Source: a virus. Taken from it: 41,883 bases of DNA. Of the stretch, positions 255 to 41,883 are shown piece by piece. The notes under the pieces were generated by a model, which had not been told where the DNA came from, made no database searches, and saw only the letters and a list, made by a program, of their open reading frames with translations. Position numbers and translations under genes: made by a program. The stretch lies in IMG/VR virus record IMGVR_UViG_3300046492_000081; one strand, 5' to 3'. The number at the start of each line of letters is the position of its first letter. Within the stretch, counting starts at the first letter, position 1.

Positions 255-272
255 TCTAGTGAGTCGAAGGCC
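255..272 (-). promoter_or_regulatory. Phage promoter-like motif, copy 1 (variant GGCCTTCGACTCACTAGA), upstream of the exonuclease gene
   Basis: Matches the 12-copy family. It sits 38 nt upstream of ATG 224 in gene orientation. Confidence 0.5.
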
Positions 273-276
273 CGTG

Positions 277-367
277 TGTAGGAATGTAGGAACTGAACCA
301 GGTCCCGGAATCTCTATAGAAACCCTTAGTGATTATCGAGAGTGGTGCAGAAACTACATTCCTACAT
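277..367. repeat. 91-bp inverted-repeat regulatory cassette A; paralogue at 24358-24448
   Basis: The arms are TGTAGGAATGTAG (277-289) and CTACATTCCTACA (354-366). The 61-bp core matches cassette B with no indels, roughly 48/61 by eye. Confidence 0.8.
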
Positions 368-449: not shown

Positions 450-485
450 GAAAGCCCCGTCCGACCACTGGGGCCAGACGGGGCT
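450..485 (-). terminator. Stem-loop terminator candidate at the end of the late operon
   Basis: AGCCCCGTC (453-461) pairs with GACGGGGCT (477-485). In minus sense the stem is followed by UUUCUC. It lies just after the stop of 507..728. Confidence 0.55.
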
Positions 486-506: not shown

Positions 507-728
507 TCAGGGCTCCACAGGGATAACCACAGCCCCCCGGGCCACCCGTGCCGTTGCTCCTTCCGTGCTGCCACAGGGCACAGCGTCACAGACCATCAGG
601 CCACCAGGCAGCGGGCAACTGGGGTCATGGAACAGCGTGCGCGTGGTCTCATCCACCTTCATCAGCCTCATGGGCCGGACGTACCGGCAGACATGACACA
701 TGGTGGGCTGGTCTTCGTTCGCGGTCAT
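507..728 (-). CDS. Hypothetical Cys-rich 73-aa protein
   Basis: ATG 728 has a GGGGGAA SD. Contains CxxC plus three further Cys. GC3-rich. The longer ORF-track version reads through regulatory motifs. Confidence 0.6.
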   Translation of the reverse strand: MTANEDQPTMCHVCRYVRPMRLMKVDETTRTLFHDPSCPLPGGLMVCDAVPCGSTEGATARVARGAVVIPVEP

Positions 729-5979: not shown

Positions 5980-7103
5980 GAGGATTCGTCCGCCTTCCCG
6001 CTCACGGTGTTGATAGTGAAGCCCCCATTGCCCACGCTCAGCGGGATGGAGAAGCTATGGACCACGTGAATCTCAGGCAGGGCGGCAGCCCCGTAGTTCA
6101 CGCGGATACGGTCGCCAGCGTCTAGCGCGGCATTCGGGACGGCTTCCAGAGTCACCGTGCGGTTGGGTGCCCGGTACTTCGCCAGCAAGGCGTTAGCCGT
6201 CGCCTGAGCCTGGTTCGTGGTGGTCACCAGGGAAGAGCTGTAAGCCTTCGTCACCTTGCCGTACGGACCGCCGTAGTACAGCGGGTCACTGGTGCTGGTG
6301 ATGGTGGCCGTGCCCCGGACGGCAGGCTTGTTGTCAGCGCTGTTCTCCCCGGTAACGATCACCCGGTTGTAGACGCCATCCGCCGTCAGTTCCATGTTGG
6401 CGCTGACCATGACTCCGGCTTCACCCGCTGACACGTCCCAGACGGGCGTCACAGCCACGTTGAGGGGGTCCGGGATATCTACCAGCCGGAAGGTCCCGGC
6501 AGCGTCACAGAACAGCTCACAGCCCACGGAGTCAGCCACCTCACGGAAGCTGGTCCACGTGTCCGTGTTCGCATCCCACGTCTTCGTAGCCAGTGGCGTT
6601 GAAGCCCCCAGGGTCGACGCATCAACGAACGAAGCGCCCGGGATCACGTTGGGGATGAAGTAACCCAGGAAGGCGGCAGCGTTGGTATAGCCCTTCGTGC
6701 TGGTGGCAGAGTCCCACAGTGCACGCTTGAGCAGGATCTCAAGACCACTCGCCTGAATGGACAGCGGACCAGTGTGAATGTTGCCGCTGACACTGGTGAT
6801 GACGAACATCCCGGCGGGCACCCGCTCAACGGACCCGTCTAGGTACTGAATTCCGGTCTCAACGTAAAGGCGCTGCCCGTAGACAGCGAACTTGTCCGTG
6901 GCATTGACCGGGAACTGTGCGGGATCAGCAATGGAAAGGGACAGTGACCGCCGAACGTCACTGCCCCTATCCACGCTTACCGACCCGTCCGTAAAGGCAA
7001 TGTCCTCAGCAACGATGCTGCCGTTGTAAATGACATTGATCTTCGTGGAAAGGCCGTGATCCGTTGTCAGTGCCGGTAGCCACTTCGAGCTAACCGACTG
7101 CAT
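5976..7103 (-). CDS. Minor tail protein (baseplate or tail-tip component)
   Basis: 375 aa, positioned after the Dit-like gene. Confidence 0.65.
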   Translation of the reverse strand: MQSVSSKWLPALTTDHGLSTKINVIYNGSIVAEDIAFTDGSVSVDRGSDVRRSLSLSIADPAQFPVNATDKFAVYGQRLYVETGIQYLDGSVERVPAGMFVITSVSGNIHTGPLSIQASGLEILLKRALWDSATSTKGYTNAAAFLGYFIPNVIPGASFVDASTLGASTPLATKTWDANTDTWTSFREVADSVGCELFCDAAGTFRLVDIPDPLNVAVTPVWDVSAGEAGVMVSANMELTADGVYNRVIVTGENSADNKPAVRGTATITSTSDPLYYGGPYGKVTKAYSSSLVTTTNQAQATANALLAKYRAPNRTVTLEAVPNAALDAGDRIRVNYGAAALPEIHVVHSFSIPLSVGNGGFTINTVSGKADESS

Positions 7104-7104
7104 G

Positions 7105-9399
7105 TCACCCCTCAGTCAGGACCGAAGTCCACGTTTCGTGAGCGTTGAACAGCTCTTCCCACGTGGGGTAAGCCGTGCTGTCCATGATGGTCTGCCACGT
7201 GTTCGCGGCGCTGCCCTGTAGACCACCGTCAGGCCGGTCAACCTCAGTGATTGCCAGCGTCCAACGCCAGCCAGGAACACGGGCGTCAGGGTCCAGCGGC
7301 TCAACGTCCACATCACCAATGGACACGTACAAGTTGCCCTCAATCCCGTAGCCGGGCATGGCTTGCACCAGGGCAGCCGTGCCAGCGTCAAGGAGTGAGT
7401 CAAACAGGGCGTTAGCTTCCGGGTCCCAAATGAGAACCGTGATGCTGGACGTACGCCCGGCACGCGCCCCCGTGATGTGAACAGGGTTCTTCCGGCCCAC
7501 CACGTCATAGCGGGTAGACCGCGCTGCCCGGGACCACTTCAACGGCGCTTCCATCATGACCGTGGTGTTCAGCGCTGGCACACCCGGAGACTTGAACCAG
7601 GCGTAATCAGCATCCACCAACGTGGGAGCGTCGACAGTCTGAGTCAGGATGCGCGGGCCCTTCGTGGCACCCGTGCTACTGGTCCAACTGACCGAATACC
7701 AGACCTTCGACCCTAGGGGCGCTTCGTAGTCCTCAACGACCATGGTGGAGTACGGGTTAGGCGCTAGGTCCCAGGTGCGCCCGTAGGCACGCATGGAAGC
7801 CGCCTTGCCGGACTCATCCATTCGCGTGATGGTCACGTTAGACGCGCTTGAGCTGACGTCAGGAACGTAGTTCACAGTCAGCGTGATACTGCCGTCTTCA
7901 TTGCTGGTCACTAGCGTGTACTCGGCAACGGCTTCCATCAGGGTGACGTTGTCCGCCCACCAGTAATCCACTAGCGGGTTATCGGAGTTGACCTCAAACC
8001 CAACCTTCACGAACGCGGCACCTTCCGGGCACGTGCGCGTCTCAGAGTTGATCTGAGCCCACCAGTCGGCAGCCTGTTCAACGGCATAGAACTGGTCAGG
8101 GTTGTCAGCTAGGAACAGGTTCCCGGCAGCGTCATACCAGTCAACACGCGTGCGAACAGCGCTGGTTACCTTCTGCGCCGGATCAGTGTTGTGCCGGAAG
8201 ATGGTTGCCTTTACCTGGTAGGTGGTCCCCGGAGTCACAGGCACCAGCCGGTCAAGCGTCACGGTGGACGTACCCGGGGCAGCCTGCACCAGCTTCAAGG
8301 CAAAGTAGCCGTCAGTGATGGCGCTGGTGATCTGAGTCATGGACACGGTTCCGTTGTCCACCAGCCACGGAGGTAGATAACCCTCAGTGCTGTACTCCGC
8401 GTAACTCAGAAGGTTCCCGGCAGGGTTGGCGGACGCGTAGAGCTGTGCATCTTCAATGACGAAGACCTGCCCGGCAGCCGTAGCCTGTGGCCGAAAGAAC
8501 ACCTTGCACTGAGTGGCATTCACGCCCGTGGGCGCTGTAGCCGTAATGCCAATCCAGCTCGTGACGTTCACGCCAACCGAATAGGCAGTCTGTGTAACCG
8601 GGCCAACCTGGTTCCATGCAGCGTCATACCAGCGGAACTCTGCATACCAGGTGGTTGCAATCGAAGGCGAACGGGCCAGCGTATAGCTGGTGTACTCCTT
8701 GCCCGGGATGATGTTGATGAAGCTGTTAGTTCGGATCTCCTGAGACCCGGCGGCAGCGGAAGTCAGCTCAAGGGCGTAGAAGCCCATTCCGGCGGACAGA
8801 TTCCAGTTGCCCCGTGCCAGCGTCCCGCTGTCAACCTTCCACCCGGACGTGTCCTGTTCCATTGACGCCGTGTTGTAGCCGTAGATGTTTCCGGCACGAA
8901 CCAGGGCAGCGCCAACGTACACGTCATCCACGTTCACATACTCGCCAGCGGCAAGGCCGTTAACGAAGATGCGAAGAGCCCCAGACTTAGCGTTAGCCGG
9001 GGCAGTGCCCACAAGTCCTAGGTAGTTGACATTGAACCAACCGGACTGATTCGTAATGGGCAGGTTGCTGACCACCGTGCTGGAAATCAGGTTGCCAGCG
9101 GTGACAGCGTCATACCAAGAAATCTGAATCTGACCCGTGCGCCCGGCCGTAGCGGCACTAGTCCTCAGCGGAACACGGGCCACGTACTCAAGGCCAGCCG
9201 TGACATTGAAGCGCGGGGCATACCCGGTGACCTGCCCTGCCGCCGTTGCGGTGAGCTTTAGCGAATAGGTGCCAGACAGGAACTGACCGGTCACAACTGA
9301 CAGCGTGGTGTTATTCCCGGCATCAGTGCCCCACGCGTGGGTACCACCTTCGAACGTCGACGCGTTCTCAGCCAGAAGGTTAGCGTTCGTGTAAGCCAT
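7105..9399 (-). CDS. Minor tail protein with three tandem carbohydrate-binding-like repeats and a C-terminal distal-tail-like region
   Basis: 764 aa. Three repeats of about 150 aa each end in a W(Y)D-A...V..V/L motif. First large gene after the tape measure. Confidence 0.7.
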   Translation of the reverse strand: MAYTNANLLAENASTFEGGTHAWGTDAGNNTTLSVVTGQFLSGTYSLKLTATAAGQVTGYAPRFNVTAGLEYVARVPLRTSAATAGRTGQIQISWYDAVTAGNLISSTVVSNLPITNQSGWFNVNYLGLVGTAPANAKSGALRIFVNGLAAGEYVNVDDVYVGAALVRAGNIYGYNTASMEQDTSGWKVDSGTLARGNWNLSAGMGFYALELTSAAAGSQEIRTNSFINIIPGKEYTSYTLARSPSIATTWYAEFRWYDAAWNQVGPVTQTAYSVGVNVTSWIGITATAPTGVNATQCKVFFRPQATAAGQVFVIEDAQLYASANPAGNLLSYAEYSTEGYLPPWLVDNGTVSMTQITSAITDGYFALKLVQAAPGTSTVTLDRLVPVTPGTTYQVKATIFRHNTDPAQKVTSAVRTRVDWYDAAGNLFLADNPDQFYAVEQAADWWAQINSETRTCPEGAAFVKVGFEVNSDNPLVDYWWADNVTLMEAVAEYTLVTSNEDGSITLTVNYVPDVSSSASNVTITRMDESGKAASMRAYGRTWDLAPNPYSTMVVEDYEAPLGSKVWYSVSWTSSTGATKGPRILTQTVDAPTLVDADYAWFKSPGVPALNTTVMMEAPLKWSRAARSTRYDVVGRKNPVHITGARAGRTSSITVLIWDPEANALFDSLLDAGTAALVQAMPGYGIEGNLYVSIGDVDVEPLDPDARVPGWRWTLAITEVDRPDGGLQGSAANTWQTIMDSTAYPTWEELFNAHETWTSVLTEG

Positions 9400-9422: not shown

Positions 9423-9460
9423 GGGGTGACCACCTCCGGATTTTCGGAAGTGGCCACCCC
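9423..9460. repeat. SD/anti-SD palindrome, copy f (extended stem of about 17 bp)
   Basis: GGGGTGACCACCTCCG GATTTT CGGAAGTGGCCACCCC. Confidence 0.75.
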
Positions 9461-9466
9461 CACCAA

Positions 9467-20391: not shown

Positions 20392-20416
20392 GCACCTACG
20401 GATTTTCGGAAGTGGT
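20392..20416. repeat. SD/anti-SD palindrome, copy i (imperfect)
   Basis: GCACCTACG GATTTT CGGAAGTGGT; touches the TerL stop codon. Confidence 0.7.
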
Positions 20417-22125
20417 TAAGCGGAAGCGGCACGCGCCTTCTTGAGGGGTCGACGTACGTAGCCGTCCATGGCCATCACGGCAGCGGCAATGCCATCAATG
20501 CGGGCACTGGACTTCTGCCGGTTCGGCTTGACGGGTCGGAAGTTGTCGTTGCCGTCCGTCAGGATCTCTACGCATGAGGCATGCCAGCGAAGCACGGGAT
20601 TCCCGCCATGCCGGATCTTGCCTTCACGCAACATGCGCTCAAGTTCCTTCGAACCAGGGCCCATGCCTAGGTAGGTCTGTGCGACCGGCACCAGGTCAAC
20701 GCCCCGGGTCTTATGGTCAACACGCTGCACAAGCTGACCGGCAAACATGCGGTCATAGCTGATGCGCTGGACATTCAACCGGCGGCAATCGTCAATGATC
20801 TGACGCTCAATCGCGGCATAGTCAATGGCGTCACCTTCGGTTAGCTGAATCCAGCCTTCCCGGACCCACAGCCGAAGCGGCACCTGTAGCTGTGCCTCAA
20901 GTTCGTCAACCCGCTCTTCTGGTAGCCAGAAGCGGGAGATCAACTCAAGCTCAACACCAGGCTGCCGGGACTCAACGGCCATGACCCACGCGGACATGTC
21001 CGACACGGCGGATAGGTCGACGCCACCCCACGCGCGCCGGTAACGGAACTTCTTGTCATCGACTTCGCCAGCGTTCGCGTCCCACATAGGCATGGGAAGC
21101 CAGCGGGTTGCAGCGCGCATGCGTCGATTCAGAGACAGGCGGCAGAACGTTGGGAAGTAAGAGGGGGTGGACTTCGCCTTAGCGGCTTCACGGCGCATGT
21201 ACGCCAGTGACGGGCTGGTGCCTAGACCAGGGTTGGCCTTGTACCAGGTGGCTTCGTCAAAGGGGTCATCAGATTCTTCCGCTGCCCAAATGACCCCGTA
21301 GTGACCAGGGTCATCAATGACGCCCTCAGATAGGCGACGCGTATAGACATGCTTTTCGTCATAGATCGAACCCTCTTCGCCTTCATCAGCAGTCGTGATG
21401 AAGACAACCAATGGCTGATCACGTGCGCCTGTGCCGGTCTCGATAGCGTCGACTAGGTCACGCTTCTTGTGAACGTGGACTTCGTCAACGATGGCCCCGG
21501 ACACGTTCAGTCCGTGGGCGGTCTCGGCAATCTTGGACAGCGCCCGGAAGACGCCACCAGTACGGGGCACCCGGATGACTCCGCGCAAGACCTCAACGCG
21601 TCCCTTGACGGCATTGGAAGTCAGCGCCATTCGCTTAGCGTCATCGAACACGCGCTCAGCCTGTGGCAGCGAACCAGCCGCCGCGTAGACTTCCGCACCG
21701 TGTTCCCGGTCAGCCAACAGGAGCGTGAGCCCAATGCCGGAAGACAGGGTTGACTTGCCGTTCTTACGCGGAACCTCAATCCAGACGGACCGGATCACGC
21801 GCACTTCCCGCTCAATCTCCGGGTCATACCACAGCCACCCGAAGACGGGGGCGATAACCCAGACGATTTGCCACGGGGCTAGCTTGAGGGGGCTTGAACC
21901 CCATCTGCCCTTCGTGTGCTTGAAAGACTCAGTGGCCTTGATGGCACGCCGGGCAGCGTCCACGTTGAAGTAGGCACCCGGTTGCTTGTCAGCCTGCATG
22001 GCCAGCACCAGGGGGCGAGACTGAGCCGCTGCCTGAATCTCTTCGGGCGAAAGTCCTAGCTCAATCAGCGCGTCATACGGGACCGGCAGCGCGTCTAGCG
22101 CCTCAGTCGAAAACGTCCCCGTCAT
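20416..22125 (-). CDS. Terminase large subunit
   Basis: 569 aa. Walker A-like VPRKNGKS, ATPase plus nuclease layout. ATG 22125 follows a GGGGGAGA SD. Confidence 0.9.
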   Translation of the reverse strand: MTGTFSTEALDALPVPYDALIELGLSPEEIQAAAQSRPLVLAMQADKQPGAYFNVDAARRAIKATESFKHTKGRWGSSPLKLAPWQIVWVIAPVFGWLWYDPEIEREVRVIRSVWIEVPRKNGKSTLSSGIGLTLLLADREHGAEVYAAAGSLPQAERVFDDAKRMALTSNAVKGRVEVLRGVIRVPRTGGVFRALSKIAETAHGLNVSGAIVDEVHVHKKRDLVDAIETGTGARDQPLVVFITTADEGEEGSIYDEKHVYTRRLSEGVIDDPGHYGVIWAAEESDDPFDEATWYKANPGLGTSPSLAYMRREAAKAKSTPSYFPTFCRLSLNRRMRAATRWLPMPMWDANAGEVDDKKFRYRRAWGGVDLSAVSDMSAWVMAVESRQPGVELELISRFWLPEERVDELEAQLQVPLRLWVREGWIQLTEGDAIDYAAIERQIIDDCRRLNVQRISYDRMFAGQLVQRVDHKTRGVDLVPVAQTYLGMGPGSKELERMLREGKIRHGGNPVLRWHASCVEILTDGNDNFRPVKPNRQKSSARIDGIAAAVMAMDGYVRRPLKKARAASA

Positions 22126-23445: not shown

Positions 23446-23450
23446 GATTG

Positions 23451-23522
23451 AGCCCCCTGGTGGATTCGAACCACCGCACCATGTTTACGAGACATGTGCT
23501 CTGCCCATTGAGCTAAGGGGGC
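23451..23522 (-). tRNA. tRNA-Thr (anticodon CGU)
   Basis: Hand-folded cloverleaf. 7-bp acceptor GCCCCCT/AGGGGGC, anticodon loop CTCGTAA, T-arm GGTGG-TTCGAAT-CCACC. Confidence 0.85.
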
Positions 23523-23526
23523 GAAG

Positions 23527-23607
23527 TCCGCTGGGAGGGATTCGAACCCCCACGCCGTAAGGCATCCGGGTCTAAGCCGGACGTGTCTTCCGTTCCACCA
23601 CCAGCGG
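23527..23607 (-). tRNA. tRNA-Leu (anticodon UAG), class II with a 13-nt variable arm
   Basis: Acceptor CCGCTGG/CCAGCGG, D-arm GTGG-AACGGAAG-ACAC, anticodon loop CTTAGAC, T-loop TTCGAAT. Confidence 0.8.
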
Positions 23608-23688
23608 GCACGCTGTGCGGTCTCCCCTTTAGCTCAGGGCTCCGTCTACACAGCGGCAGGGCAGGGCATTACCGGCAACGCCCCGCAG

Positions 23689-23761
23689 TAGGTCAGGTGG
23701 GACTTGAACCCACAGCATCCCGGTTAAGAGCCGGACACTCTACCAATTGAGCTACTGACCT
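23689..23761 (-). tRNA. tRNA-Lys (anticodon CUU)
   Basis: Acceptor AGGTCAG/CTGACCT, anticodon loop CTCTTAA, T-arm GTGGG-TTCAAGT-CCCAC. Confidence 0.85.
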
Positions 23762-23834
23762 AGGCGGCAAGGGAACCTCTATCACCCATTGCCAATGCGC
23801 ACCCTGAACCATTACTTACGTGCGCTTCCTATCG

Positions 23835-23907
23835 CTGTCCCGGCTGGATTCGAACCAGCAACCCCCGGGGTAACAACCCGGCGCTCTGCCCATTGAGCTA
23901 CGTGACA
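23835..23907 (-). tRNA. tRNA-Asn (anticodon GUU)
   Basis: Acceptor TGTCACG/CGGGACA with one A-G mismatch and a U1-A72 pair. Anticodon loop TTGTTAC. T-arm GCTGG-TTCGAAT-CCAGC. Confidence 0.8.
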
Positions 23908-24016
23908 TTGAGGGTTACTCGCCGCTCACTTTGCTTGTGACTAGCAAGCCAGTGTGAGCCGGTTTCACCCAGGGTGCTTATCGTCGGTCCGGTCAGGGAC
24001 CTATTGTGAGCACCAG

Positions 24017-24101
24017 TGCCGCATCAAGGATTTGAACCAAGGACTTCCCCTCACCCATGGGCCCATGGTGGGGGCGCTCTTCCAGACTGAGCTAATGCGG
24101 C
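24017..24101 (-). pseudogene. Degenerate tRNA-like element (85 nt) with an aberrant anticodon arm
   Basis: The 7-bp acceptor (GCCGCAT/ATGCGGC) and D-arm are perfect. The anticodon arm is replaced by a 28-nt hairpin around CCATGGGCCCATGG. The T-stem has two U-U mismatches. Confidence 0.55.
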
Positions 24102-24104
24102 AAG

Positions 24105-24178
24105 CGCTTCGTACCGGATTCGAACCGGTGACCTTCGCCTTGACAAGGCGCTGCCCTAAGCCACTAGGCCAACGAAGC
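24105..24178 (-). tRNA. tRNA-Asp (anticodon GUC)
   Basis: Acceptor GCTTCGT/ACGAAGC, anticodon loop TTGTCAA, T-arm ACCGG-TTCGAAT-CCGGT. Confidence 0.8.
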
Positions 24179-24309: not shown

Positions 24310-24327
24310 TCTAGTGAGTCGAATGCC
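24310..24327 (-). promoter_or_regulatory. Phage promoter-like motif, copy 4, about 130 nt upstream of the tRNA array and late operon
   Basis: GGCATTCGACTCACTAGA in gene sense. Confidence 0.55.
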
Positions 24328-24357: not shown

Positions 24358-24448
24358 TGTAGGAATGTAGGAAGTGAGTGAGGTCTCTGAATCCCTATAG
24401 AAACCCTTATGGATTATGAAGAGTGATACAGAAACTACATTCCTACAT
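24358..24448. repeat. 91-bp inverted-repeat regulatory cassette B; paralogue of 277-367
   Basis: Same 13-bp arms and the same 91-bp span. The cores align without gaps. Confidence 0.8.
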
Positions 24449-24515
24449 TTATGCAGGTCAGATGGGGTGTTAGAAGCCTGGCACTCAGCCCCCTCATGCA
24501 CGCTGAACGCACGAA

Positions 24516-24547
24516 GGGCGGGCACCAGCCGAAGCCAGCACCCGCCC
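24516..24547 (-). terminator. Strand-specific terminator after the int operon (14-bp stem with G-U pairs, UUCG loop)
   Basis: Minus-sense RNA GGGCGGGUGCUGGC-UUCG-GCUGGUGCCCGCCC followed by UUCGUGCGUU. The four wobble pairs would be C-A mismatches on the other strand. Confidence 0.6.
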
Positions 24548-24559
24548 CAGTGACTCAGA

Positions 24560-29911: not shown

Positions 29912-29938
29912 GTCACCTCCGGATTTTCGGAGGTGGTC
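29912..29938. repeat. SD/anti-SD palindrome, copy l (perfect)
   Basis: GTCACCTCCG GATTTT CGGAGGTGGTC. Confidence 0.75.
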
Positions 29939-29995
29939 AAAGCAAGAAAGCCCGGCGGGCACATGGCCTACCGGGCAAACTCACTGGTCAGGGGC

Positions 29996-31694: not shown

Positions 31695-31726
31695 GGGGCC
31701 ACCTCCGAAAATCCGGAGGTGACCCC
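31695..31726. repeat. SD/anti-SD palindrome, copy m (perfect, with extended GGGG/CCCC flanks)
   Basis: GGGGCCACCTCCG AAAATC CGGAGGTGACCCC. Confidence 0.75.
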
Positions 31727-33803: not shown

Positions 33804-33828
33804 CCACCTCCGAAAATCCGGAGGTGAC
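33804..33828. repeat. SD/anti-SD palindrome, copy n (perfect)
   Basis: CCACCTCCG AAAATC CGGAGGTGAC. Confidence 0.75.
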
Positions 33829-33877
33829 CGCCCGTGAACCAGCCAGCCACAGGCGGTCACCATGGGTGTGACCGGGG

Positions 33878-35854: not shown

Positions 35855-38290
35855 TCAGTCCTGAGCGAAGATGCCCGGACCCGTCTTCGAAGTGGCGCTA
35901 GGGAGTCGAATGCCTACCAGGGCCATCCCCTTAGCCGTACGCGTGCGAGTGATGCCGCGCTCTTCCATGGCCCCGTAGAACGCGCGACGGGTCCAACGCT
36001 CCTTGGCAGGCAGGTTCTCAGCCTCACACCAGTCAAGGTAAGCGTTGAACGCTTCGCCACCATCCATGCGGGCAGAGTCATCCGCCACCAGGACACCCGG
36101 GAAGAAACCCGCCAGCGCGTCACTGGTCTCCTTGTACTCCTTCGTGGCAGCGCTGATGCTGGCAGGGTCTTGCAGCCCGTCACGGAACCACTCAACAGCC
36201 CCACGGACAGCCCACGCGGCAATACCCTTCGCTTCGGCTTCCAGCTTCTTGTCAAGGCTGTAGTCCCGCTCATGCGGAGCAAAGAACCGGGTAAAGGGAA
36301 TCATCTTGACGCGTCGCCAGAGACCTTCGTCCTGACCCCGGAACTTCGGCTTATGGTTCGTCGCCAGCATGAGCAGAAACGAAGGCTTGAATTCGAAGAA
36401 CTCTTGCCGAAGGAACCGGGCGGCAATCATGTCCTTGCCCGTGACACGCTTGAGCACAGCCTCAGACATGGGCTTGCCGGACTCACCCTCAGACGCCATC
36501 ACCAGGCGGCTACCGCGCAAGGCGGCAATGTCGTTAGGGATGCCGCCATTCGCCTTCTCTTCGAACGTGGCAAAGGGCGTGGTCTTGCTGATGGTCCGGA
36601 ACACACTGGACAGCGTGTCAGTCAGGACACTCTTGCCGTTCGCACCCTTCCCCCACAGCACACAGAAACACTGCTCATCCGTGTAGCCCGTGATGCCGTA
36701 GCCAATGATGCGCTGCATGTACGGCACAAGGTCAGGGTTGTCCGGGAAGACCTCAGTCATGAACTGTTCCCAGCGGGGGCAGGTGGCAGCCGGGTCATAC
36801 TCGATGTCAAGGCAGTACGTCAACATGTCAGCCTTGTCATGCGCCCGGAGCTTCCCAGTGCGAAGGTTCACGGTGCCGTTGCGGAAGCTCAGAAGGTGCG
36901 GCCGGTTGTCGAAGTCAGACGCCTCAACGTAGACCGTGGGGACCGAACGAAGCTCAGTCATCAGGTCATTGATGCGCGTGGTCATGGTGAACCCACGGGC
37001 TTCCTTGACCTTGCCAGCCAGCACCAGGGCAGCGCCCATGCGGTGAATCTCCTGACGCACCTTGACCTCAGAACGGGACCAGGTACGGCCGTTCCACACG
37101 TAGAAACCCAGACCAGGCGCGAACTTGATACGGCCATCGGACCAGGCAACCAGCGCGTGAGCGTTCATGGCGTCCGTGTCGCCGTAGCGCTCAAGGAGAC
37201 CAGCCAGGATGCGGGCAGCCTCATTGCCCTGGTCCCGGCTGACAATGTCCGCCCCGGTCGCTTCGCTCAACTCTTCGCTGACGGCTTCCCGTTGGGCCTC
37301 TTCCGGCTTCGCTACCGGCTTCGCAGACTTCACGGCCTTGTGCAGAGCCAGCGCAAACGCCATGGGGGCAGACTCGCGCCACTCAGTCAGGTCCGTCTTC
37401 GGCCCCAGCTTCGGAATGGGCAGCGCGTAGACCGGGATGCCGTACGCCTTGAGCCCTTCGGCAAGCGCCATGTTGAAGCCCTGCCCGGCAGAGTCCACAT
37501 CACCACACGCAATGACCTGTGAGCCCTTGAGACCAGCGGCAAGCTCAGCCAGAAGGTCAGGGTTGGACACCAGGGCAGCGCCCCGGACCATCACCACGTC
37601 ATACCCCACGGAAACCGCTGTAAGCCCGTCTCCGGGCCCCTCAGTGACCAGGGTGACCCCGTAGCCGCCCTGACCCCGGAACACGCCGTACGGGGACCAG
37701 CGGAAGCCTTCCGGGTTGCGCAGAGACAGCCAACGCCCCGGGCACTCCCCCGTGATGTCACGCCCCTGCAAGCCACGCGGCATACCGACGAAGTCACACA
37801 GCGGAACAGTCACCCGGGGGAACGCCTTGAAGGAGCGCGTCAGGTACGGGAAGGGGTCATTCACATCCGGCCCGTCATACCCGATACCCAGTTCATACGC
37901 CGTGTCAGCGTCCATGCCGAAGCGGTCAGCAAGGTAGTCCCGGGCACGCTCCTGCCACTCCCCCTCTTCGGGCAGCCGGTCACGCGCGTCATCAACGTAG
38001 CCAGCAAGGGCGGCAGTCTGAGCAACACCCACAATGGCGGGCTTCTCCTTCGGGACCGTAGCGCCCTCACCATCAGCGTTGAACAGGTCCGGCCACGTCA
38101 GGCCAGCCGCCTTGACCACGTCACCCGTGGGGCAGCCGACACGGCACGTGATGCGGACCTTGTTGTCATCCCCACGCCAGATACGTAGCGACGGGTCAGA
38201 GTCTCCGTGCGACGGGCACAGGGTGATGTACCCGCCGTCTTCGTGCTCACTCACACCTTCGAAGTGGTCCAGCAACTCAACGAACAGCAC
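35855..38290 (-). CDS. Bifunctional DNA primase/helicase (CHC2 Zn-finger, Toprim and SF3/D5-type NTPase)
   Basis: CPSHGDSDPS...CRVGC, Toprim acidic motifs, Walker A GKGANGKS. GTG start at 38290 follows an AGGAAGG SD. Confidence 0.85.
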   Translation of the reverse strand: MLFVELLDHFEGVSEHEDGGYITLCPSHGDSDPSLRIWRGDDNKVRITCRVGCPTGDVVKAAGLTWPDLFNADGEGATVPKEKPAIVGVAQTAALAGYVDDARDRLPEEGEWQERARDYLADRFGMDADTAYELGIGYDGPDVNDPFPYLTRSFKAFPRVTVPLCDFVGMPRGLQGRDITGECPGRWLSLRNPEGFRWSPYGVFRGQGGYGVTLVTEGPGDGLTAVSVGYDVVMVRGAALVSNPDLLAELAAGLKGSQVIACGDVDSAGQGFNMALAEGLKAYGIPVYALPIPKLGPKTDLTEWRESAPMAFALALHKAVKSAKPVAKPEEAQREAVSEELSEATGADIVSRDQGNEAARILAGLLERYGDTDAMNAHALVAWSDGRIKFAPGLGFYVWNGRTWSRSEVKVRQEIHRMGAALVLAGKVKEARGFTMTTRINDLMTELRSVPTVYVEASDFDNRPHLLSFRNGTVNLRTGKLRAHDKADMLTYCLDIEYDPAATCPRWEQFMTEVFPDNPDLVPYMQRIIGYGITGYTDEQCFCVLWGKGANGKSVLTDTLSSVFRTISKTTPFATFEEKANGGIPNDIAALRGSRLVMASEGESGKPMSEAVLKRVTGKDMIAARFLRQEFFEFKPSFLLMLATNHKPKFRGQDEGLWRRVKMIPFTRFFAPHERDYSLDKKLEAEAKGIAAWAVRGAVEWFRDGLQDPASISAATKEYKETSDALAGFFPGVLVADDSARMDGGEAFNAYLDWCEAENLPAKERWTRRAFYGAMEERGITRTRTAKGMALVGIRLPSATSKTGPGIFAQD
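35885..35914 (-). promoter_or_regulatory. Phage promoter-like motif, copy 8 (full 30-nt form), inside the 3' end of the primase gene
   Basis: GGCATTCGAC-N12-CTTCGAAG. Confidence 0.6.
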
Positions 38291-41090: not shown

Positions 41091-41120
41091 CTTCGAAGCT
41101 GGTCTAGGGGGTCGAATGCC
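41091..41120 (-). promoter_or_regulatory. Phage promoter-like motif, copy 12 (full 30-nt form; identical to copy 10)
   Basis: GGCATTCGACCCCCTAGACCAGCTTCGAAG; overlaps the exonuclease stop codon. Confidence 0.6.
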
Positions 41121-41883
41121 TAGCCCCGTCGCTCCGTCCCCGTGGTGATGAGCTTGCTACCGGCCAGCGGCTTCCCCAGAACCTTCCGGCTGCCCTCACG
41201 CTCCCAATCAACCGTCTTGCGAAGGTGCAGGAACACCCCGAAGGCAGCGCGCATCTCAGGGGCGTAGACGGGCACCAGGGACCAGCCGTCAGGGGTCACG
41301 TGAAGCACCACAGCGCCATCAAACGCGGGCATGGGCTCTTCGGTACCGTCCGGGTCAATGATGCGGTCAGCGAAGGCGTAAGCGGCCATCTGCAAGGCCA
41401 CGGAAGGCCACACGGACTTAGACGTCTTCCAGTCGGCAATCACGTCCACCCACACGGCGTTACCGCTGACGTTGTCCGGGTCCAGCGCCCACGTGCCATC
41501 GTCGTTGAGCACCACGCGCAACCGTAGCCACGCGTCGAATGAACCGGCGTACTGATAGGTGTCGGACCAGGCCACGTCTTCGGCACGCACAAGGACCGGC
41601 TTCACGGTGGCCATGAACTCAGCGAACATGGCGTGATACGGGACCATGTCCGGGTGCAACCGGCCGATTCGCTGCCCACGCATCATGCGCTCAAACAGGT
41701 CATGGGCCTTGCTGCCAATCTTGCTGCGGTCATTGGTGTACCGCCACGCTGCCCCGGCAACCCACTTCTTAGCGCCGCCCCGGTCCCGGTCCGCCATGCG
41801 CTGTAGGTAGTCAATGCTGTCTAGGGCAAGCTCAGCCGCCATGTTCGCGTACCAACGCGTCAGGAACTTCTTAGGAAGCACGT
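41120..41883 (-). CDS. PD-(D/E)XK (Cas4/RecB-like) exonuclease, C-terminal 254 codons; the N-terminus continues at 128..224 across the junction
   Basis: D...DVIADWKTSK and QMAAY motifs typical of RecB/Cas4-family nucleases. Confidence 0.8.
   Translation of the reverse strand, partial: VLPKKFLTRWYANMAAELALDSIDYLQRMADRDRGGAKKWVAGAAWRYTNDRSKIGSKAHDLFERMMRGQRIGRLHPDMVPYHAMFAEFMATVKPVLVRAEDVAWSDTYQYAGSFDAWLRLRVVLNDDGTWALDPDNVSGNAVWVDVIADWKTSKSVWPSVALQMAAYAFADRIIDPDGTEEPMPAFDGAVVLHVTPDGWSLVPVYAPEMRAAFGVFLHLRKTVDWEREGSRKVLGKPLAGSKLITTGTERRG

Follow-up and report, generated by a model that had tools for sequence, protein, structure and literature searches.

Paired inverted iteron arrays as candidate replication origins in a phiC31-like Streptomyces phage

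Genome setting and structure of the two elements

The window, by which is meant the whole stretch of 41,883 nucleotides that was analysed, is identical at its two ends over 127 bp (1-127 and 41757-41883) and is on this basis a genome of 41,756 bp that is circular or was assembled as a circle. Its GC content is 0.62, and almost every gene is on the minus strand. The nearest sequenced relative is Streptomyces phage Rowa, at approximately 82% nucleotide identity. The gene order of phiC31 is kept: structural genes, lysis, dNMP kinase, c-type repressor, Cas4-type exonuclease, and primase-helicase are followed by DNA polymerase, sigma factor, serine integrase, tRNAs, and terminase. Judged by its sequence, the source is a phiC31-like Streptomyces phage, a siphovirus.

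In Streptomyces genetics, phiC31 and its relatives serve as workhorse phages. No description of a replication origin for this family was found in the searchable literature, older subscription papers being outside our reach. The GC skew along the genome is monotonic and, since nearly all genes share one strand, it is uninformative on the position of an origin.

Two intergenic elements are the subject of this analysis. The first, element A (277-367), lies between the c-type repressor gene (835-2232, Pfam Phage_Repressor_c) and the gene of a Cas4-family exonuclease, which is the first gene downstream and spans the junction of the circle, with its 5' part at 1-233 on the minus strand and the remainder at 41120-41756. 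The second, element B (24358-24448), precedes a cluster of six tRNA genes (Asp, Gly, Asn, Lys, Leu, and Thr; 23450-24178, minus strand), the first genes downstream and the start of the late operon.

Each element consists of an iteron array, an AT-rich core, and an inverted iteron array. In A, two TGTAG iterons at 277-281 and 285-289, with a spacing of 8 bp, form the array at 277-292 on the plus strand, and the inverted array at 351-366 on the minus strand holds two more, read as CTACA at 354-358 and 362-366. The iterons of B are at 24358-24362 and 24366-24370 (plus strand), and at 24435-24439 and 24443-24447 (minus strand). An exact 13-mer, TGTAGGAATGTAG, occurs four times in the genome and nowhere else, once per arm: at 277-289 (+), 354-366 (-), 24358-24370 (+), and 24435-24447 (-). 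One arm per element is TGTAGGAA twice (277-292 in A); the other, on the opposite strand, is TGTAGGAA followed by TGTAGTTT, so that only the pentamer is repeated there. A single auxiliary iteron, TGTAGGA, is found at 412-418 on the minus strand, and relatives have a pentamer of the matching type at the same place.

The two arrays face each other across a core of about 60 bp that is AT-rich and weakly palindromic. Core GC is 0.47 in A (293-350, with the conserved block CTATAGAAACCCTTAG and weak dyad symmetry) and 0.41 in B, against 0.62 for the genome. A and B align without gaps at 78 of 91 positions, and at 52 of the 65 between the 13-mers; the block CTATAGAAACCCTTA is common to both cores. A strict scan for this architecture (a tandem 5-mer with an inverted tandem partner 30-120 bp away) finds only A and B in the whole genome, and only two sites in phage Rowa too. 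A similar four-unit scan gave zero matches in 16 element-negative loci totalling about 270 kb. The architecture is far from chance.

The placement of the elements is also the same. Read in gene sense, on the minus strand, the order in both copies is hairpin terminator, element, promoter motif, and gene. A GC-rich hairpin at 453-485 (minus strand, z -3.6), conserved in relatives, lies just upstream of A and is the likely terminator of the repressor-side transcript; its counterpart upstream of B, at 24515-24548 (minus strand, z -3.7), likely terminates transcription after the integrase-side genes. A simple terminator scanner misses both hairpins because they lack a T-run. On the other side, a phage-type promoter motif (GGCCTTCGACTCACTAGA in gene sense) is found at 255-272 on the minus strand, 4 bp from A, where it heads the Cas4-exonuclease or early operon, and again at 24310-24327 on the minus strand, 30 bp from B, where it heads the tRNA cluster and the late operon.

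The promoter motif, which in gene sense reads TTCGACTC(A/C)CTAG, has 14 copies in the genome, where 1.8 would be expected, and all are on one strand, in gene orientation. The sites, in plus-strand coordinates, include 255, 738, 3433, 4773, 24310, 26398, 32154, 33383, 35897, 38322, 40698, 40754, and 41103. The perfect copies are the two that adjoin A and B. The motif is probably recognised by the sigma factor that the phage encodes (32419-33618). A T7-like promoter was considered because the gene-sense motif TTCGACTCACTAGA is near the T7 promoter, and was dropped, the phage being a phiC31-like siphovirus with its own sigma factor; the resemblance to the T7 promoter core CGACTCACTATAG is likely a coincidence. 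No host sigma-70-type promoter was found inside the element, and a TAGTTT hexamer resembling a -10 box is present only in TGTAG-type phages.

These results bear out much of what a first-pass annotation of the window had described, namely two paralogous 91-bp elements with identical 13-bp inverted arms, a conserved core block common to both, an extra half-site, and the layout of terminator, element, promoter, and gene. Its estimate of about 48 matches in 61 core positions compares with the computed 52 in 65. Its view of each arm as a tandem 8-mer holds for one of the two arms.

Some further features of the surroundings may be recorded. A conserved motif, CTGACC(A/T)G(G/C), is found at 378-386 and 24459-24467; in most iteron classes, 6-8 bp separate it from the outer side of the upstream array. 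After the terminator comes an ACAGCG motif. Between the repressor gene and A there is an ORF of 73 amino acids (507-728, minus strand) that is rich in cysteine (CxxC ... C ... CxxxxC) and has its own promoter motif and operator. It has no match in Pfam or PHROGs, and small zinc-ribbon-like ORFs fill the same slot in many relatives.

Conservation among related phages

phiC31, phiBT1, TG1, Lilbooboo, Shaeky, and Rowa each have two elements, in positions syntenic with those of A and B. A wider sample, reached via the exonuclease or primase genes, comprised 45 Streptomyces and Kitasatospora prophage loci and about 150 IMG/VR loci. Most sampled loci have copy A, which was found in approximately 100 prophage and IMG/VR loci, and in six IMG/VR contigs a second copy with the same iteron lies 15-19 kb away. 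In total, more than 100 related phages and prophages have the same architecture in these two places, built on at least seven different 5-mers.

The arm sequence varies between phages and is identical across all arms within one phage. The classes seen are TGTAG, TGCAG, GTGAC/GTGAT, ATGAC, CTGAC, GTGGC, and GAGTG. What is kept is a 5-6-mer, present 2-4 times per arm at intervals of 7-9 bp (mostly 8 bp). Kept as well are arrays that face inwards and a distance of about 90-97 bp between their outer ends.

Across 65 distinct elements, the mean GC of the core is 0.44, compared to 0.66 in the flanks, and the core sequence is partly conserved across iteron types. Dyad symmetry of the core is modest (mean z 1.9 in 63 relatives). 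Inversion of the core relative to its flanks was considered, and 3 of 63 cores score better when reversed; the motif is quasi-palindromic, and inversion is therefore not claimed.

Two observations bear on whether the arms are read as protein-binding sites or as a base-paired stem. Firstly, in the loci L009, L012, and L013 and in phiBT1, the 3-bp spacers are non-complementary between the arms and the pentamers are intact, which favours iterons read by a protein over a stem. Secondly, the imbalance between G:T and A:C pairs in the core is accounted for by base composition alone, and there is therefore no strand-specific signal of an RNA.

The element is not always present. In 9 of 49 prophage loci, terminator and promoter are in place and copy A is missing, and only the downstream copy is visible in four IMG/VR contigs. 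Given these cases, one copy may be sufficient. In the A-less prophage clade (L019, L021, L023, L024, L044, L055, L056, L018, and L042) the terminator is directly followed by the promoter, at a site about 330 bp before position 8001 of these loci. Most A-less prophages have an unusual primase-helicase wing, RVIKRAGV. A further specificity class is seen in L133, where a B-type element with CGGTG iterons (7055-7159) adjoins a tRNA-Leu gene; within the structural region, 50 nt of this phage are exactly matched in one contig of the A-less clade.

Similar inward-pointing tandem repeats (GGAACGGTG, CGGTGTTT, and CGGTGTGA) are found in the viral contigs L254-L265, for example at 7181-7258 in L254 and 6437-6517 in L256. 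No homologue of the primase-helicase considered below was found within the segments covered of these contigs. A layout of inward tandem repeats may be a common design of phage origins.

Candidate binding proteins

The c repressor was considered as the protein that binds the arms, and was rejected: the palindrome that forms its operators is another one, and is not coupled to iteron type. The window holds a multi-copy intergenic palindrome, CACCTCCGGATTTTCGGAGGTG, at about 18 sites (e.g., 757-785, 2243-2271, 9433-9461, 20395-20423, 29916-29944, 31699-31723, and 33805-33833). By comparison with phiC31, whose palindrome CCTACTCACGTGAGTAGG was recovered at 15 sites, it is likely the counterpart of the phiC31 repressor operators, or CIRs. 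The element arms are unrelated to CACCTCCGGATTTTCGGAGGTG and do not belong to the CIR operators. Across relatives, palindrome type and iteron type vary independently: L018, for example, combines the palindrome of phiC31 with the absence of copy A, and the palindromes of TGTAG-type phages are of several kinds.

A small DNA-binding protein encoded beside A was likewise considered and rejected. The product of the gene that follows the exonuclease is a membrane protein, and the upstream Cys-rich ORFs do not track iteron type. Neither Pfam nor PHROGs names a regulator among the genes near A, and family profiling and tests on discordant taxa, covering 8 kb either side, found none that co-varies with iteron type.

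The protein that does co-vary is a primase-helicase of 811 amino acids (35855-38290, minus strand), the proposed initiator, which comprises Toprim, D5_N, SF3 ATPase, and C-terminal winged helix domains. Pfam identifies Toprim, D5_N, and DUF5906. It belongs to the P4-family primases by TIGR01613 (260.6 bits, with a cutoff of 108.7), and BLASTP aligns it to the alpha protein of P4 over residues 160-704 (E 1e-13), which cover Toprim, D5_N, and helicase. It is also homologous to PriRep5 of SaPI5 (PDB 7OLA). An AlphaFold (AF2) model of residues 660-811 (pLDDT 81) predicts a winged helix with a beta-hairpin wing. The winged helix spans residues ~735-795 (35906-36088, minus strand) and the wing hairpin residues 781-795. 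The best fold match in the PDB is the DNA-binding domain of RFX1 (probability 1.0, target TM 0.70), with a weak E-value of 0.024; the solved origin-binding domain of P4 is absent from the fold-search matches of this model. In RFX1, itself a winged helix, the wing is the part that reads DNA.

Of the approximately 800 columns of the protein, those best associated with iteron class are 789, 784, and 786, first in 38 and then in 81 distinct homologues whose iteron class is assigned. All three residues lie at the tip of the wing and are R784, A786, and M789 in this phage. At residue 789, M accompanies TGTAG (19 of 20), N accompanies TGCAG (4 of 4), I or V accompanies xTGAC or GTGGC (55 of 55), and Q accompanies GAGTG (2 of 2). 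At residue 786 the usual partner of GTGAC is N, that of ATGAC is M or A, and that of CTGAC is E. Among pairs of proteins matched at 60-80% identity over residues 1-770, 786 and 789 are both shared in 0-5% of pairs from different classes, compared to about 50% of pairs from the same class. Taxa whose clade and iteron disagree follow the iteron, as in L017, which is of GTGAY type within the Rowa-like clade, and in the TGCAG group within the phiC31-like clade. The same pairings of residue and iteron recur in a further 80 loci (L174-L253, with contigs that partly overlap).

This co-variation suggests that the wing of the primase-helicase, through residues 784, 786, and 789, reads the pentamers. 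The wing is not the sole correlate, since residues 261 and 283 of the Toprim domain likewise track iteron type in clade-discordant taxa, which may reflect a second contact or co-adapted priming. The idea that the whole C-terminal domain is a hypervariable specificity module was abandoned: the domain is 59-68% identical across iteron types and the signal resides in a few wing residues.

The first-pass annotation had proposed that the half-sites serve an oligomeric regulator at a looping operator for the choice between lysis and lysogeny. The first part stands, since the half-sites, in two inverted pairs, are clearly repeats of the protein-binding type and are very likely bound by an oligomer. 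The second is not supported. In its general form, this explanation makes the element an operator or enhancer: an oligomeric phage regulator would occupy the four half-sites, draw the DNA into a loop or wrap it, and control the adjacent early and late promoters. Both copies do lie directly upstream of the two perfect promoter motifs, which head the early and late operons, and the partial conservation of the core across iteron types is in keeping with such a role. However, the repressor has another family of operators, no DNA-binding regulator was found to be encoded nearby, and the distance between element and promoter ranges in the family from about 4 to about 230 bp. The nine loci that have lost A still have terminator and promoter, and iteron type tracks the wing of the primase-helicase. 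A purely transcriptional operator or enhancer is therefore improbable.

Candidate origins and known systems

We consider it likely, on this comparative evidence, that A and B are iteron-type replication origins of the phiC31-like phage, or an origin and a helper site resembling the crr of P4. A role as a lysogeny switch is improbable. Both copies have at least two short iterons on each side (TGTAG twice per side), with the two sets opposed, an AT-rich centre, and, in the same genome, an SF3 helicase with a C-terminal winged helix. The match of specificity between iteron and initiator is one of co-variation only. Neither copy adjoins the gene of the initiator, as A lies approximately 3.7 kb upstream of its start and B approximately 11.4 kb downstream of its end.

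Other SF3 helicase initiators, SaPI Rep and P4 alpha among them, suggest by analogy that hexamers would assemble on each side of the core. The AT-rich core would then melt and the helicase would load itself, with the Toprim domain providing the primers. A hairpin formed by the melted core during initiation is compatible with this origin model. One candidate origin heads the early operon and the other the late operon, and the distance from each to a consensus promoter of the phage sigma factor ranges from a few bases to some tens. Each element occupies the gap between a terminator and the strongest phage promoters, and is taken to be untranscribed. This placement probably shields the assembly from read-through, and it may couple the firing of the origin to the activity of the promoter. 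The conserved core and the proximity of the promoter would also suit transcription, and the elements may have a dual role beside replication.

A more speculative proposal, which we regard as rather unlikely, carries this coupling further. Helicase loading at B, or the passage of a fork, would license the late genes, as with the replication clamp of T4, or promoter firing would activate the origin; in addition, residues 784, 786, and 789 would form a simple amino acid-to-base code that determines the specificity of the origin and could be reprogrammed.

The primase-helicase might instead bind A and B without any role in initiation, the elements being a platform that sequesters or titrates the protein, or that blocks transcription or forks. 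Co-variation tells which protein binds and not what follows, and the crr of P4 is needed in cis, yet is annotated apart from the origin. Set against this, both copies have the full layout of an origin, with inverted arrays and an AT-rich centre of fixed length, and the genome has no other iteron cluster to serve as the real origin. Such a binding platform is distinctly improbable.

In an Rfam search only tRNAs reach the gathering score, and the sole match at 200-520 is at chance level (E 0.27) and outside the element. It is highly improbable that A and B act as folded nucleic acid in which the arms would form the stem, whether as a long RNA hairpin (a small RNA or a processing or attenuation signal, in line with the transcribed RNA suggested in the first-pass annotation) or as a DNA cruciform or single-strand hairpin. 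The whole element does fold as a single long hairpin, whichever strand is taken (-37 and -40 kcal/mol, z about -5.6), with the modest dyad symmetry of the core in addition, but its position between terminator and promoter makes transcription improbable, tandem identical pentamers in an arm would be pointless for a stem, the non-complementary spacers argue against pairing, and base composition accounts for the imbalance of pairs in the core.

If the origin interpretation is correct, it locates the origins of a whole phage family, and it accounts for a conserved non-coding element that could be taken for an immunity operator. The link between wing residues and DNA specificity could define replication incompatibility groups, and could allow orthogonal phage-derived replicons for actinomycetes.

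Among known systems, the repressor operators of phiC31 itself resemble the elements in being short, phage-specific inverted repeats in intergenic positions near early promoters, in the same phage family. However, CIRs are single palindromes of about 17-22 bp in about 15-18 copies (CCTACTCACGTGAGTAGG in phiC31 and CACCTCCGGATTTTCGGAGGTG in the window), and their sequence is unlike the iterons.

The core origin of SV40 has four pentanucleotides in two inverted pairs with an adjoining AT-rich tract, on which the SF3 helicase large T antigen forms two hexamers. The likeness to A and B lies in the inverted pairs of pentamers, the AT-rich tract, and the type of helicase. SV40 differs in that it is a eukaryotic virus with an unrelated origin-binding domain, and its pentamers are contiguous, whereas those of A and B are separated by a 60-bp core.

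A parallel within the protein family is P4, in whose record two loci, ori and crr, are marked as holding 8-bp iterons for the alpha primase-helicase, with both orientations represented. Alpha and the window protein are members of one family, as seen from TIGR01613 and from the BLASTP alignment over Toprim, D5_N, and helicase. The ori of P4 lies about 2.1 kb from alpha, and adjacency to the initiator gene is therefore not a strict rule of the family; ori and crr together are a precedent for two iteron loci per genome. The loci of P4 differ from each other, ori having type 1 and type 2 repeats and crr two 120-bp direct repeats, whereas A and B are a near-identical 91-bp unit. The C-terminal DNA-binding domains of alpha and of the window protein cannot be aligned at the sequence level.

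The origins of SaPIs have penta- or hexanucleotide iterons, read by the C-terminal winged helix of Rep, around an AT-rich centre (PMC9371898). At least two iterons lie on each side, in opposite directions, and two hexamers are thought to load, one per side (PMC9371898). A and B agree with this layout in every particular, with at least two iterons per side, the AT-rich centre, and the opposed directions. The initiator, for A and B the proposed one, is in both cases an SF3 helicase, fused to a primase in PriRep5, of which the window protein is a homologue by sequence, and a C-terminal winged helix sets an iteron specificity that differs between relatives, as the wing of the window protein is predicted to do. 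The differences concern number, placement, host, and type of mobile element. A SaPI has a single origin immediately downstream of rep, with 6-12 iterons; the window has one copy 3.7 kb upstream of the primase-helicase gene and another 11.4 kb downstream, with 4-5 iterons each, and each lies between a terminator and a phage promoter in the genome of a temperate Streptomyces siphovirus.
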